Virus record (IMG/VR): IMGVR_UViG_3300034965_000040
Span: 1-29,884 of that record
Strand: one strand, 5' to 3'
Source: a virus
Lineage: Duplodnaviria; Caudoviricetes
DNA: 29,884 nucleotides
Below the pieces are notes generated by a model. The model made no database searches and was not told the DNA's origin. It saw nothing but the letters and a program-made list of their open reading frames with translations. The translations under genes were made by a program, and so were the position numbers. Below are positions 3,781 through 26,991 of this stretch, piece after piece (position 1 is the stretch's first letter; every line of letters starts with the position of its first letter).

Positions 3781-4071
3781 ATGCGCGACGCAATAGAATT
3801 GATCACGAAACTGCGGCAAGGCGTTTTCACGGGGGCCGACAAGGCGCTGGCCGTGGAGGAACTGAAACTCCAGACATCGCCCACCAACGAAATGAGGAAC
3901 ACCGCCATTGCCGTCTATTCCGGCCAGGAGGTGGAGCAGTTCTACCTGGGCCGATTTGAGGCGTGGATCGACGAACATATCCACCGCACCTACCCACGGC
4001 TGCCCGATTCCAATCTCGCCGTGGCCCAGGTGGGCCAACGCAAGCCTTACCCCTGGGAGGTGAAGCGATGA
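3781..4071 (+). CDS. Hypothetical protein (96 aa)
   Basis: AGGAG SD, ATG, compact operon position. Confidence 0.75.
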   Translation: MRDAIELITKLRQGVFTGADKALAVEELKLQTSPTNEMRNTAIAVYSGQEVEQFYLGRFEAWIDEHIHRTYPRLPDSNLAVAQVGQRKPYPWEVKR

Positions 4072-4283
4072 CGCGGCCCTCGTTCTACGCCCAGGTGGGC
4101 CTTACCGGAACCATTCTCCGCTTCAACACGCCCTCTGAGCGGGATACCTGGGTGGCCCAGCTCGCCCAAATTCGCCGGTCCCTGACCGGGAAAGAACTAT
4201 TCCCCAATTCCCGCAGGCAAGCCCGCGCACGATGGGCCGCCACGTCGAACCCGCAGGTACAGTTCCTGATCGCGGAGAGCTGA
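4068..4283 (+). CDS. Hypothetical protein (71 aa)
   Basis: GGAGGT SD; ATGA overlap with the previous stop; MTRPSFYAQVGLTG... Confidence 0.7.
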   Translation: MTRPSFYAQVGLTGTILRFNTPSERDTWVAQLAQIRRSLTGKELFPNSRRQARARWAATSNPQVQFLIAES

Positions 4284-4284
4284 C

Positions 4285-4395
4285 ATGGGCTGCATCGGCT
4301 TTGGCTTCTACCTGCTCCTGTGGCTCATCTGTTGGCCCGTCGCATTGGCCGTGACCGTCGTGGTCGGGGGATGGAAGCTGATGAGGATGAAATGA
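4285..4395 (+). CDS. 36-aa membrane microprotein
   Basis: MGCIGFGFYLLLWLICWPVALAVTVVVGGWKLMRMK*; GGAG upstream; its TGA overlaps the ATG at 4392. Confidence 0.65.
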   Translation: MGCIGFGFYLLLWLICWPVALAVTVVVGGWKLMRMK

Positions 4396-5075
4396 TCGCC
4401 GCACTCTATGTCGAAACCAACGGGTGCTACTTCAATCTCCCAGGGGTTGACCCATGGGACATCCACCGGGATGCCAGGCGCTACGCTGGCCCTCACCCCG
4501 TGGTCGCGCACCCGCCCTGCCAGCGTTGGGGCCGTTTCTCAGAAGGCCACATGAAGATCAAGGGCAAGGTGACCGGCGACGATGAAGGCTGCTTTGCCGC
4601 TGCCCTGGAATCCCTTCGGACCTTCGGTGGGGTGCTGGAACACCCGGCCCATTCAAAGGCTTGGCCTGCTTTCGGAATCCCGACCCCTGCCAACCAAGGC
4701 TGGACCCGGATCAGCATGACCAATTCGTTCTGTCTCTGGGTCTGTGAAGTGGAGCAGGGGCATTACGGTCATGTCGCCCGGAAGAAAACATGGCTCATCT
4801 TCGCCGGGGTTGTGATGCCGCCCGAACTGATCTGGGGCCGGTCTGAGCAGCGCCTCCCGGCCAAGCGGCTGGCAGAGCGTGGTTATGAATCAGCCAGGCG
4901 ATGCGGGGCCGTGGCGAACCAGTCCTCCCGCCAGCGTCAACGGACCCCCCCGCAGTTCCGCGATCTTCTGCTTTCCCTCGTCCGGCCGCTTGACGGTGGG
5001 GACGAAAACGATCACCACCCCAGCACGGCCAACCCGCACACACGTAACGCGGTCTCGCCTGCATCGGTGGAGTAG
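4392..5075 (+). CDS. Minimal DNA cytosine-C5-methyltransferase-like protein
   Basis: AHPPCQRW (motif IV PC), VLEHP (motif VI ENV-like), EQGHYGHVARKKTW (motif VIII-like). No FxGxG motif I. ATGA-coupled start. Confidence 0.65.
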   Translation: MIAALYVETNGCYFNLPGVDPWDIHRDARRYAGPHPVVAHPPCQRWGRFSEGHMKIKGKVTGDDEGCFAAALESLRTFGGVLEHPAHSKAWPAFGIPTPANQGWTRISMTNSFCLWVCEVEQGHYGHVARKKTWLIFAGVVMPPELIWGRSEQRLPAKRLAERGYESARRCGAVANQSSRQRQRTPPQFRDLLLSLVRPLDGGDENDHHPSTANPHTRNAVSPASVE

Positions 5076-5119
5076 GTGCGGCACCTCGGGGGGTCAGAGA
5101 TCCGTCCACCAGTCGCACC

Positions 5120-5146
5120 AAGGGGCCTCTTGACGAGGCCCTTTTT
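5120..5146 (+). terminator. Intrinsic terminator of the early operon
   Basis: GGGCCTC-TTGAC-GAGGCCC hairpin followed by TTTTT. Confidence 0.85.
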
Positions 5147-5158
5147 CTATTCTACATT
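5130..5158 (+). promoter_or_regulatory. Sigma70-type promoter embedded in the terminator
   Basis: TTGACG (5130-5135), 17-nt spacer, TACATT (5153-5158). Confidence 0.6.
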
Positions 5159-5163
5159 GGAGG

Positions 5164-5338
5164 TCTTCGAGCCAAGGGGGCGTTATGAAGTAGCCCGCTG
5201 AGACGTGCAAGCGCAGCTCCTCAAGCTAACCTGGAGGCGTTATGTGAACCGGCAAGGGCCAGAGCAGCCCAAAGTAGCTCCCATTTGATGATTGATTTAC
5301 CCTTGAGAGCAAAAGGCCCCGTGACGACGGGGCCTTTT
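5164..5338 (+). ncRNA. Putative ~175-nt small RNA carrying two minigenes
   Basis: Bounded by a promoter and a terminator; no credible protein ORF; tandem GGRGGCGTTATG units; several predicted stems. Confidence 0.5.
5311..5338. terminator. Bidirectional intrinsic terminator
   Basis: AAAAGGCCCCGT-GACG-ACGGGGCCTTTT perfect inverted repeat with a U-tract on both strands, just past the last lysis gene. Confidence 0.9.
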
Positions 5339-5354
5339 CAATGCCTGCGGGGGA

Positions 5355-6050
5355 TCACCAGCGGAACAGCAAATGCGCCCGTGCATCCCACGCGGACCCC
5401 GTGAGCGTGTTCTTCACGGCCACCTCCCCACCCACCCGGAACATGGCCATGTCCCGCTGCACGATCACCCCCATGACCCCGTCCGTACCGTAGAGCAGCC
5501 CCACCGCATTGGGCTTCACCTGGGACAACGCGGCCTTCAGGGCGACCTGGGAGTGCCCTGTGGCCTCTTCCTGCTTTCCAAACGCCGCCTTCCACTGGCC
5601 AGCGGACCCCTGAGCTGCTTCGGCAGCCACCCGATAGCCCTCAGCCTCACGCTCCCGCCCGGCGACGGCTTCCGTGAGCCCCGGCACCCGCAACGCCTCC
5701 TTGCCCCATTTCCAGACGACTGGGGCGTCCTCCACGGCGATTTGCGCAGGTCTCAGCAGCCCCATCCGTACCAGTTCCGGCACGAGCAAGGGAAGGGGCG
5801 GGGGATCGCCGACGGGAGGAGGTAACGGAACCCTTGCCTTTCGAGCAGTTTCCGCAGCGGCCCAGGCGACTTTGGCCACTTCCTCCATGGCCTGGGCCTG
5901 GCCCTTGAGCACTTTGGCCTCGCCAATCGCCACCGTGGCCCGGTCGGACTCGACCTTGACCCGCCGCGCCTGGTATGCGTAACCGATCAGCGCAGCCGCG
6001 AGGGCTGCGCTGAGTAACCCGATGCCTGCTTGGGTCCAAGTCACTCTCAC
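5355..6050 (-). CDS. Spanin-like lysis protein (N-terminal TM, Ala-rich helices, C-terminal beta strands)
   Basis: Last gene of the lysis cassette; GTGA-coupled to the holin; TM GIGLLSAALAAALIGYAY; coiled-coil-like middle; ends ...HLLFRW. Confidence 0.6.
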   Translation of the reverse strand: MRVTWTQAGIGLLSAALAAALIGYAYQARRVKVESDRATVAIGEAKVLKGQAQAMEEVAKVAWAAAETARKARVPLPPPVGDPPPLPLLVPELVRMGLLRPAQIAVEDAPVVWKWGKEALRVPGLTEAVAGREREAEGYRVAAEAAQGSAGQWKAAFGKQEEATGHSQVALKAALSQVKPNAVGLLYGTDGVMGVIVQRDMAMFRVGGEVAVKNTLTGSAWDARAHLLFRW

Positions 6051-6490
6051 TTTGACACCTCCTGGGTAAGATTTTCGACCTTGTCGATGCTCTGGATTGG
6101 CGGGTCAGCCGGCCCCTGGAGCTTGGCCTGGAGCTTGGCCTGGATAGCCGAGGAGCCGAGCACCACAACACCTACGAGGCCGGCAATGACCGAGAGCAGG
6201 ACGACGAAGACCCAGGTGGGGTCAAACTCCTTCATCGAATCAATGCGGCGCACGATGGCCAAGGTGATCTTTGCATAGGACCAGCAGAGCACCGCCGCAC
6301 CCATGAAGTAGCCGGCGTTCTTCGAGGAGGCTTTGCCATCCGCGCCATTGAGCATTTCGCGAAGGTAGGCGATGAAGCCGCCCAGTTCCCCGCGGGCGTA
6401 GGCGATGCAGGCCACGATTCCCATGAAGATCCCCACCAGGACGCCAAAGTTCTGCGCCACCAGGTGAAGGAATTCCCGGAGGAAGGTCAT
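6047..6490 (-). CDS. Probable holin (3 TM segments)
   Basis: Three hydrophobic segments, hydrophilic C-tail, ATGA-coupled to the endolysin. Confidence 0.65.
   Translation of the reverse strand: MTFLREFLHLVAQNFGVLVGIFMGIVACIAYARGELGGFIAYLREMLNGADGKASSKNAGYFMGAAVLCWSYAKITLAIVRRIDSMKEFDPTWVFVVLLSVIAGLVGVVVLGSSAIQAKLQAKLQGPADPPIQSIDKVENLTQEVSK
6115..6144. repeat. 12-bp tandem repeat (2.5 copies) in the holin tail
   Basis: CCTGGAGCTTGG x2 + CCTGGA, encoding IQAKLQAKLQG. Confidence 0.8.
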
Positions 6491-7032
6491 ACCCCATAGG
6501 CCCGGAGAGCACGAGCGTAGTAGCGCTCACGCTCAGGGAGCCCGTTGGTGCCCCCGTTGATCTTTTTCGTAGCCCCGAGAATGTCCTTGCGATCCGCAAA
6601 CGCATTCAGCCCCTTGTCCTGCCAAAACCACGCGGCGGAACGCGCCCCGCTGATCACGTCAGTGGTCAACACGCGAGGGGTGTCCAGCAACCGCAGGTCG
6701 TGGAACAGCGCAAGCGAGCAACGGCGATGGTTTTCGTGGCCCGTGATTTGAATGGGGCCATGACCCTTGAACCTCTGCCCGTCCCCATCGGCCTCGGGGG
6801 TGTTTCCCAGCCGCGCCGCGAGTTTCCCCGTGTCGTAGGCCGCGCCCGTGGCCAACTCCTCCTGATAACGAAGCTCCCCGGATTCGTGTGCAAGCTGCGC
6901 AAGGAACATGGCCTGGCGCAAGGGAGTATCCACGTCGAACTCCTCCATGGCCGCGTTCAACGGCGCGAGCCAAGAGTCCCATCGCTTCTTCGCCAGCGGC
7001 ATGATCTGGGCGAACAACTCAAGCGTGAGCAT
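6487..7032 (-). CDS. Endolysin, glycoside hydrolase family 19
   Basis: FLAQLAHES, FKGHGPIQITGHEN, SAAWFW, INGGTNGL..R motifs. Confidence 0.95.
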   Translation of the reverse strand: MLTLELFAQIMPLAKKRWDSWLAPLNAAMEEFDVDTPLRQAMFLAQLAHESGELRYQEELATGAAYDTGKLAARLGNTPEADGDGQRFKGHGPIQITGHENHRRCSLALFHDLRLLDTPRVLTTDVISGARSAAWFWQDKGLNAFADRKDILGATKKINGGTNGLPERERYYARALRAYGV

Positions 7033-23172: not shown

Positions 23173-23201
23173 ATTATGCCACGACAAGCGGCGTATATCA
23201 A
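23173..23201 (-). promoter_or_regulatory. Sigma70-type promoter for the head genes
   Basis: Minus strand TTGATA, 17 nt, CATAAT with extended -10 TG, in the portal-protease gap. Confidence 0.75.
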
Positions 23202-25096: not shown

Positions 25097-26991
25097 TTCA
25101 CCTCGCTGCGCTTCCGCGCCTTCGGTTTCTCCGTCTTGCTGTGGCCCAGTTTCATCGCTGCGAGCATCTGGCGAAGGTCCTTCACGTCAAGGATGGTGAA
25201 AGCGCAGAAATTGTAGACCGTCAAATCGAGCACTTCATTCCGCTCTCGTGTCTTCGTCCAAATGCGATACTTGAGCCCCATTTTGTACTTGATTATAGCC
25301 TTTTCACCCGTCAACTGTCTATAAAACTCTTCGTCCAGGCCCTCGGGAAAATGGAAGTACCCCGGCCCTGGCCCCGTGATTTCCCGCAGGCTGTCCGCGA
25401 TCATGTCCTTCGCGTTGTTCACCCCGAGCTTGAACAGCTTGGCTCGATACTGATTCCCGTCCGTGGGCTTGGCCGACAGAGGGGCCGAAGGGTTCGATGA
25501 GCCGCTGCAGGCGAAGACTCGGTTGATGGCCCGCGCCTTCGTGTAGCGGTAGACGAAATCGGATACATTGCCATCGCTCGCGTCCACCAGGACCAGCGAC
25601 ACCCGCAACTTGCGCCCGGATTCGTGCTTGAATTGCCGAAAGAGGTGGGCATCCAGCATTCGCCAGGTGCTTTCTCGATTGGGTGGCCCCCAGATCACCG
25701 CGGGGGAGATCATCTTGCCCTCCGCATTCTCGGTCGGGATTATCCACTTTTCGTTTTCCAGCCCGTGGCCCATGAACAGCAATTCCAGCCGGTCTGCCTG
25801 CACGTCCACAGCCGCGGTGAGAATGATCGCGTCCATGGGCACCTCAGCATCGTAGCTTTCCTCCCGCGCACGGATACCTGTGGCGTCCAACTGTTCGCCG
25901 CCCATGTTGTCCCACGATTCCCCGAGCACGGTGTTAAAGAACACCCGCAACGTCTCCCTGCCCGAGTGCTTCGCGGCAATGAAAGCTGTCGCGATGTCCC
26001 CGAAGCCGCGCCACGGGGAATACAGTTCGTTGATATGGAAGCCGCGATATTTCGTCCGTTCGGGATGCTCCGCGATCCATGTTCCGCACGCCAGCATCAC
26101 CGACTTGTGCCGATCCAGGATACGTTCCGAGCAATGCGCGCACTCGTACCACGCCAATTCTGGCCGCCCTTCAGGCCAATGCACGTTGGCGAACACGAGC
26201 ACCTGCACCGAACCGCAATGCGGGCACGGCACCCAGTAGCGTTCCATCGTGGATTCGTTGTATAGATCCTCGATTCGCGAAATACCCTTCACACCAGGCG
26301 TAGAGCACACCACCGTTTTCGAGTTCCAGAACGTGGTCTGCCGTTTCTCAGCAAGGGAGAACGGATCGCCTTCCGCCTGGCCCATCTTGCCCACAGACAA
26401 CGCCATGCGGTCAATTTCATCCACGAACAAGTCGCGAATGGGGCGGGAGGCGAGCTGCGCGGGGCTGTTCCCGCCGATCATAGTGAGCTGGCCACCTGGG
26501 AACACTTTTCGCAGCAGCGTTCCGTCGTTCCCCGTATCCTTCGCCGTGCGGATCTTGTCCCGAATCCGCTCCGTGTCGCGAATCGTGGGATCGAGGCGAT
26601 CCTTCACGAACGCCTTGGCCATGTCCGTGGTTGGCTGCATGATCATCATGGGGCCGGGCCGCTTGTCCATGGCAAAGCAGGCCATGTTGAGCAGCGCTTC
26701 CGTCTTGCTCATCTGACTCGAAAACATCATGGTGATGCGGCGAACTTCGTCGTCGTTGTAGGCATCCAGGATGTCCCGCATGAACGGAACTTTCGACGTG
26801 CGCCATTGGCCTGGCTCAGACGATGATTCGGGGGGCAGCTTGCGATACGCGTCGGACCACTGGGAGACGGTAATGTCCTCCGGAGGTGCCCAGGCCTCAG
26901 CTATCTTCTTCCCCAATCTCTTCGTCATCTCCCGTAATGTCCCGCAGACTGCTGTCGGCGGTCGTTCGCTCGTAGTGCTGGGAAAGTTCAT
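25093..26991 (-). CDS. terL: Terminase large subunit, lambda gpA family
   Basis: SSEPGQW, Walker A-like SSQMSKTE, Walker B FVDEIDR, STP, CPHC/CAHC, nuclease AAVDVQ, RNEVLD. Start could be slightly downstream. Confidence 0.96.
   Translation of the reverse strand: MNFPSTTSERPPTAVCGTLREMTKRLGKKIAEAWAPPEDITVSQWSDAYRKLPPESSSEPGQWRTSKVPFMRDILDAYNDDEVRRITMMFSSQMSKTEALLNMACFAMDKRPGPMMIMQPTTDMAKAFVKDRLDPTIRDTERIRDKIRTAKDTGNDGTLLRKVFPGGQLTMIGGNSPAQLASRPIRDLFVDEIDRMALSVGKMGQAEGDPFSLAEKRQTTFWNSKTVVCSTPGVKGISRIEDLYNESTMERYWVPCPHCGSVQVLVFANVHWPEGRPELAWYECAHCSERILDRHKSVMLACGTWIAEHPERTKYRGFHINELYSPWRGFGDIATAFIAAKHSGRETLRVFFNTVLGESWDNMGGEQLDATGIRAREESYDAEVPMDAIILTAAVDVQADRLELLFMGHGLENEKWIIPTENAEGKMISPAVIWGPPNRESTWRMLDAHLFRQFKHESGRKLRVSLVLVDASDGNVSDFVYRYTKARAINRVFACSGSSNPSAPLSAKPTDGNQYRAKLFKLGVNNAKDMIADSLREITGPGPGYFHFPEGLDEEFYRQLTGEKAIIKYKMGLKYRIWTKTRERNEVLDLTVYNFCAFTILDVKDLRQMLAAMKLGHSKTEKPKARKRSEVK

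Follow-up and report, generated by a model that had tools for sequence, protein, structure and literature searches.

A candidate small-RNA cassette with two minimal reading frames in a phage of a likely Acidobacteriota host

Gene setting and likely host

The 29,884 bases analysed here, called the window below, form a linear record of a soil-type phage, with a completeness of about 50%. Up to position 5075, its + strand carries a replication block, composed of a family A DNA polymerase gene plus small genes. A late block, transcribed leftward and ending at 5355, contains portal, gpT-type capsid, tail and GH19 endolysin genes, together with genes that we infer to be terminase-like, holin-like and spanin-like. 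The cassette lies in the 280-base gap that separates these convergent replication and lysis/late blocks. It is a 210-base stretch bearing promoter-like and terminator-like signals, and the RNA expected from it is about 175 nt long. The features of the region, in window positions, are:

4320..5075, + strand: last gene of the rightward replication block (phrog_12600), no assigned function
5120..5151, + strand: terminator T1, a 10-pair hairpin (5120-5144) followed by a T-rich tail, one-directional
5130..5158, + strand: sigma-70-like promoter, TTGACG at 5130-5135, 17-nt spacer, TACATT at 5153-5158, 9/12 consensus, with the -35 in the T1 loop
5174..5193, + strand: unit 1, SD AAGGGGG, 4-nt spacer CGTT, then ATG AAG TAG (Met-Lys-stop)
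5190..5280, + strand: GYAGCYC in four copies (5190, 5213, 5264, 5274), two behind each ribosome site, with partial complementarity to the SD region
5233..5247, + strand: unit 2, SD GGAGG, 4-nt spacer CGTT, then ATG TGA (start-stop), overlapping a GTG start
5244..5288, + strand: 14-codon ORF MNRQGPEQPKVAPI, GTG start, with a second TGA behind its stop (TGA TGA)
5300..5307, + strand: CCCTTGAG, predicted to pair with SD1 (5172-5178; 5300-5305 up to 0.89), closing the RNA
5311..5338, both strands: terminator T2, a perfect 12-bp hairpin with 4 T on each side
5355..6050, - strand: final gene of the late block (leftward), called spanin-like from its position after the holin-like gene and GH19 endolysin; no family match

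The true start of the phrog_12600 gene is probably at 4371-4386. Taken from 4371 to 5075, this gene has at least 8,000 relatives, mostly of 195-210 aa, and the phage copy is about 30 residues longer. Its protein gave no Pfam, NCBIfam or convincing PDB match; it contains an HPPC motif reminiscent of cytosine methyltransferases. On the other side of the gap, the spanin-like gene (5355-6050, - strand) belongs to an unannotated family that carries the motif WxWGKEAxRVP. Members of this family occur in prophages of the likely host class, and a small membrane-protein-like gene comes next in 7 of the 7 family loci inspected. Elsewhere in the window, a dATP/dGTP pyrophosphohydrolase gene (PF04447) is present at 214-522, near the family A polymerase gene; such genes often accompany modified-base phages. 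The head-gene block holds two strong sigma-70-like promoters on the - strand, at 23173-23201 (10/12) and 25292-25321 (11/12).

The host is likely an Acidobacteriota bacterium. The nearest named capsid relatives carry the labels Acidobacteria (65%) and uncultured Acidobacteriota (57%); of 157 genomes from one Acidobacteriota class, 15 contain spanin-family genes (with E <1e-25 in 4); and hairpins resembling T1 and T2 are also present in Acidobacteriota. Our guess for the host class is Holophagae.

Predicted transcription signals and paired minigenes

An initial annotation of this DNA had described a promoter (TTGACG, 17-nt spacer, TACATT) whose -35 sits in the loop of the upstream terminator, and a bidirectional terminator at the far end of the cassette. 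Upon re-checking of the letters both descriptions held, T2 being a hairpin with a T run on either strand, and all coordinates were correct. Transcription is predicted to start near 5163-5166. Within the region 4000-7000, T1 was the sole terminator-like site and 5130-5158 the sole promoter-like site; with a stricter hairpin definition applied to the whole window, T1 (+ strand) and T2 (both strands) were the only terminators. Promoter-like sites are no more frequent in the window than chance predicts, with 7 found against about 7.0 expected. Given this frequency, the unusual thing about the promoter is its position: a consensus -35 within the hairpin was seen in 0 of 107 strong terminators of the control loci. 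Since the + strand has two terminators separated by 190 nt and a promoter-like site lies at the upstream one, we infer that the cassette would be a separate transcription unit. T2 would terminate both the cassette RNA and the leftward lysis block.

Three further observations concern these signals. An SD-like GGAGGT lies at 5159-5164, directly after the -10 and at or before the predicted start, with no start codon behind it; we assume that it may be a promoter discriminator. T1 (5119-5136) and T2 (5310-5327), 191 nt apart, are alike at 14 of 18 bases and have TGACGA in both loop regions, which may hint at an old duplication. On the opposite strand, around 5100-5213, a frame of about 38 codons runs across T1 behind GAGGAG and a TTG start (found by eye); it is probably a by-product of hairpin symmetry.

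The two SD-led minigenes, which had been claimed as ATG AAG TAG (5174-5193) and ATG TGA (5233-5247), are present exactly so; the overlapping GUG start in the AUGUGA of unit 2 had been overlooked. UAG is read by RF1 and UGA by RF2. Under two definitions, these are the only SD-ATG-stop units on either strand of the window. The following comparisons are rough, with minigene criteria set after sight of the element: 160 control phage or prophage loci (4.86 Mb, both strands) gave 22 single units, 21 of them within a longer open frame, and 0 pairs within 150 nt; 48 further loci, chosen for the upstream gene, gave 2 single units and no pair; and dinucleotide shuffles of the cassette body produced one unit in 68 of 20,000 cases and two units in 0 of 20,000. 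Judged from the letters, the anatomy made of promoter-like site, paired minigenes and hairpin is real and non-random. Both ATGs and both copies of AAG TAG (5188, 5272) share one frame (5185-5277), and read-through of the unit 2 TGA would give an 11-codon frame that likewise ends in AAG TAG.

Common to the two units is a 12-mer, GGRGGCGTTATG, identical at 11 of 12 positions, the single change retaining a G-U pair with the anti-SD. Repeated 12-mers with one mismatch or none arose in 50 of 3,000 shuffles. By hand count, 86 matches to the 12-mer were found in 60 of the 157 genomes of the likely host class, versus 34 for a reversed control. Among 31 host matches inspected, 17 head an ORF of at least 69 codons, some of these being orthologues, and 2 are followed by an immediate stop, both within other reading frames. 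By these occurrences, the shared 12-mer is an ordinary translation start signal in the likely host class. In addition, the phage genes at 1022, 1486 and 11569 use GGAGG with 4-nt spacing, and the 16S tail CACCTCCTT was present in 4 of the 5 likely-host genomes searched. Since start signal, phage usage and host anti-SD agree, both sites should be capable of binding host ribosomes. Past the 12-mer, the unit bodies align no better than shuffles (1058/5,000 and 1976/5,000 reach the score).

RNA folding and search for relatives

The units had also been read as a tandem structured repeat, with specific pairings. Folding speaks against this: the cassette RNA is no more stable than its shuffles (z-score -0.70), and the units share short motifs only. 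The proposed helix between CTCAAG (5220-5225) and CTTGAG (5302-5307) has a pair probability of 0.005-0.009, and pairing of AGCTCC back on its own SD reaches at most 0.002 for each unit. The repeated motifs themselves are there, with GCAA at 5207 and 5252 and AGCTCC at 5215 and 5276, although GCAA falls at different places within the units. Predicted instead is pairing of the unit 1 AGCUCC with SD2 (by way of 5210-5220), at a probability of about 0.78. When freely folded, the units displayed no shared structure and no stable AUG hairpin, and a shared helix of each SD with its own AGCUCC was discarded, being 4-5 kcal/mol worse than the free fold. As for GYAGCYC, any 7-mer with two degenerate places reached four copies in 19 of 3,000 shuffles. 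The cost of opening was 11.3 kcal/mol for site 1 and 5.9 kcal/mol for site 2, and that of 14 real phage starts ranged from 3.5 to 11.7, with a median of 9.55.

Further ideas were rejected. For a switch between the units triggered by a ribosome on unit 1, the opening of site 2 changed only from 5.9 to 5.4 kcal/mol; for antisense control of phage genes, no exact complement longer than 12 nt was found in the window; and a likeness to SAM-II, twister-sister, boxB and tRNA-Ala ends had no support from Rfam.

The RNA had been presented as an undescribed one, and Rfam agreed: 0 matches were obtained at the gathering threshold, the best E value being 0.094, for the terminator only, and 3.1 for the body alone. 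ARAGORN gave 0 matches. Pattern scans, which require exact motifs and would miss diverged relatives, yielded 1, 0 and 0 matches in three DNA scans of IMG/VR, the single one inside an integrase gene, and 15 matches in metagenome DNA, none with an early stop or a cassette. BLAST against GenBank phages returned 109 records with a best E of 0.2 and a coverage never above 14%, and plasmid BLAST no cassette match. The search of 401 genomes from the likely host phylum gave 11 matches, all short, which we read as terminators or chance; one of the 11 lies in an unpublished genome that also contributed to two of the pooled counts given here, and no conclusion rests on it. The 157 genomes of the likely host class gave 9 matches of 19-35 nt (E >0.001), and 0 for the tandem-minigene pattern.

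Neighbouring genes were also used as entry points. The spanin-like gene has one close relative (48% identical) and no relative in IMG/VR or metagenomes; in the 7 distant loci of its family that were inspected, the genes are ordered differently and no cassette is present. For the capsid, there is a relative at 84% identity. No cassette was found at 48 loci carrying relatives of the upstream gene, nor any cassette relative by the polymerase route, and 160 capsid-gene loci stop short of the cassette region. Within the window, no further copy was detected among the 20 largest repeat families or by the 12-mer. The cassette is known from one genome, with no homologue in the databases searched. No phage RNA of such build was found in the open-access full-text literature, and four short motifs were absent from 6 supplementary files (those other than files 1, 2 and 4) of the phage csRNA catalogue PMC10690425.

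Possible functions and likeness to known systems

Our tentative preference goes to a stand-alone phage RNA of about 175 nt, CreT-like and largely peptide-free, which would cycle host ribosomes through initiation and release. Host sigma-70 RNA polymerase would transcribe the cassette, and 30S subunits with initiator tRNA would bind both sites. Unit 1 would yield fMet-Lys and end through RF1, unit 2 would end through RF2, and part of the ribosomes may start or restart at the overlapping GUG, with a 14-residue by-product. Such an RNA would likely drain host translation initiation mildly and in trans, much as CreT does, though with no rare-codon trap. Of the initial proposal, this keeps the stand-alone ribosome-binding small RNA, the reading that best suits the anatomy and matches no Rfam family, and gives up the tRNA-Lys version and the proposed pairing.

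Several points favour ribosome cycling. Two strong + strand terminators stand 190 nt apart where one bidirectional hairpin would suffice, and the position of the promoter fits the layout of promoter-coupled terminators described in bioRxiv 10.64898/2026.08.19.745784. The 12-mer is a real start in the host class, in keeping with the GGAGG spacing of the phage and the 16S tail. Because this ribosome signal is the sole feature kept between the units, the remainder failing to align and each unit having a different early stop, selection for product-less ribosome binding is suggested. Paired minigenes were absent from the control loci, site 2 opens at 5.9 kcal/mol against the median of 9.55 for real phage starts, and CreT RNAs and E. 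coli start-stop sites, in the accounts cited below, provide precedents. On the other hand, no homologue was found, hence no sign of conservation; site 1 is predicted among the most occluded (11.3 kcal/mol); the promoter has a 9/12 consensus, a level common by chance in the window; and the phage itself needs host ribosomes, with no antitoxin or regulator seen. Moreover, AUGUGA has a spacing for which both AUG and GUG serve as starts in E. coli, so that unit 2 may simply be a gene start.

This last point leads to a competing reading that we find doubtful, in which the cassette would be a small moron-type mRNA for a 14-residue peptide initiated at the GUG of AUGUGA, the Met-Lys minigene being an upstream ORF or the remnant of a duplicate. 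The GTG at 5244 is 6 nt from GGAGG, the ORF ends in TGA TGA, and the accessible site is site 2. The choice of GTG as the start was made by analogy with PMC9841429; according to that source, both AUG and GUG are used at E. coli AUGUG start sites with 12/14 spacing, and GUG initiates better with an A at the fourth position, through RF2-dependent termination-reinitiation. By our own arithmetic from the same source, the spacing of unit 2 is 12/14. Against the peptide, the ORF has a codon adaptation of 0.47, and only 16 of 576 13-codon windows of phage genes are as low or lower, yet so are 3 of 21 phage gene beginnings. Since a ribosome on unit 1 shifts the cost of site 2 only from 5.9 to 5.4 kcal/mol, no coupling of unit 1 to site 2 is predicted, and a 14-residue peptide is too short for protein searches. 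Rather unlikely, in our view, is transcriptional punctuation, whereby the promoter would strengthen T1 and send polymerases head-on into the late operon at a weak two-way T2, the ribosome sites being relics of an emptied cassette and the RNA functionless. According to two reports, promoter-coupled terminators are widespread and the promoter influences termination (bioRxiv 10.64898/2026.08.19.745784), and head-on polymerase collisions drive bidirectional termination (bioRxiv 10.1101/2022.10.23.513370). T2 has just 4 T per side, the cassette body folds like its own shuffles, and the lack of any homologue is in line with this. What punctuation leaves unexplained are two intact ribosome sites with different immediate stops amid diverged neighbouring sequence, and no other copy of the cassette turned up among the 20 largest repeat families or by the 12-mer.

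The two remaining proposals go back to the initial annotation. The RNA could be a folded decoy, hardly translated, that displays SD/AUG-like elements to an RNA-binding repressor or to a defence nuclease (for example ribosome-dependent RelE-type RNases). In predictions for the full RNA, both SDs are indeed base-paired (SD1 up to 0.89, SD2 about 0.78) and GYAGCYC occurs four times, but the fold is not significant, the freely folded units have no structure in common and no candidate partner was seen. The 12-mer heads unrelated host genes, and therefore does not mimic one operator. We found no direct support for the decoy and hold it improbable. Very improbable is a toxin like lambda bar or archaeal CreT that would trap tRNA-Lys as peptidyl-tRNA. 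Unit 1 does have the form start, one codon, stop, and minigenes inhibit growth through peptidyl-tRNA accumulation; the toxicity described is in Pth-defective cells (PMC2490762). AAG, however, ranks 4th in frequency among the 64 codons when 21 phage genes are counted (312/7,639), and a rough pool of likely-host loci counted 471 AAG versus 222 AAA, with AAG at rank 26. Trapping of a rare tRNA is therefore unlikely, and a tRNA-Lys trap would starve the phage's own genes. Unit 2 has no sense codon, which further weakens the sponge, and no cas gene or mini-array was seen in the ORFs and repeats scanned.

A bolder form of the ribosome-cycling reading, which we consider unlikely, is a peptide-free 'idling track': two empty frames, one RF1-ended and one RF2-ended, would tie up or probe host initiation and termination in trans, or lure ribosome-dependent defence nucleases off phage mRNA. 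If true, it would be a phage counterpart of CreT needing neither rare codons nor CRISPR control. To our knowledge, the main examples of RNAs whose sole action is to engage the translation machinery are CreT toxins linked to CRISPR and minigenes activated in the laboratory. A phage unit with two empty ribosome sites would show viruses using the CreT trick on their hosts, and the cassette, a candidate from one genome, would offer a 175-nt test object for futile initiation-termination cycles in cells.

Among known systems, the promoter and T1 resemble the promoter-coupled terminators of bioRxiv 10.64898/2026.08.19.745784 in having the -35 inside stem-loop DNA and the -10 just behind the T-tract. 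Those prefer an end-to-start distance of 8-11 nt and lead into a tandem gene, whereas the distance predicted here is about 14-16 nt and what follows the cassette promoter is a tiny unit opposed by a convergent operon. RNAs made of SD, mini-ORF and hairpin act as RNAs in CreT systems, among them haloarchaeal rare-codon (PMC8501985), Acinetobacter (PMC10097628) and P. aeruginosa proline-codon (bioRxiv 10.64898/2026.06.02.729485) toxins. Like these, the cassette has a strong SD, a start codon, a mini-ORF and a downstream hairpin, T2 being its sole firm hairpin, and its activity would rest on translation signals rather than on a peptide. Unlike them, it has neither tandem rare or proline codons (AAG being the 4th commonest) nor an AUG in a conserved hairpin stem, and it holds two tandem units and belongs to a phage. 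No cas gene matched among the ORFs scanned (17 in one set and 15 in another, a part of the ORFs, in a record about 50% complete), and no mini-array of the creA type, which in CreTA represses the promoter, was present among the repeat families examined in the window. Because the codon feature is missing and no creA or cas was seen among these ORFs and repeats, we do not count the cassette as a CreT member.

With lambda bar and other two-codon minigenes (PMC2490762; listed also in PMC8012679), unit 1 shares the SD-ATG-one codon-stop arrangement in phage DNA, which unit 2 does not; it differs from them by its common, not rare, codon, by its location in a promoter-terminator cassette of its own and by the adjoining zero-codon second unit. 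Unit 2, an SD-led AUG-UGA overlapping a GUG, is rather like the Start-Stop sites, reported to bind ribosomes in E. coli (bioRxiv 10.1101/520783), and the ambiguous AUGUGA start sites of the same species (PMC9841429). The cases described there act in cis and are found inside protein genes or where these begin, whereas the cassette contains no long ORF. Overall, its sequence would make the cassette a variant of the minigene or CreT-like kind, CreT-like at best.
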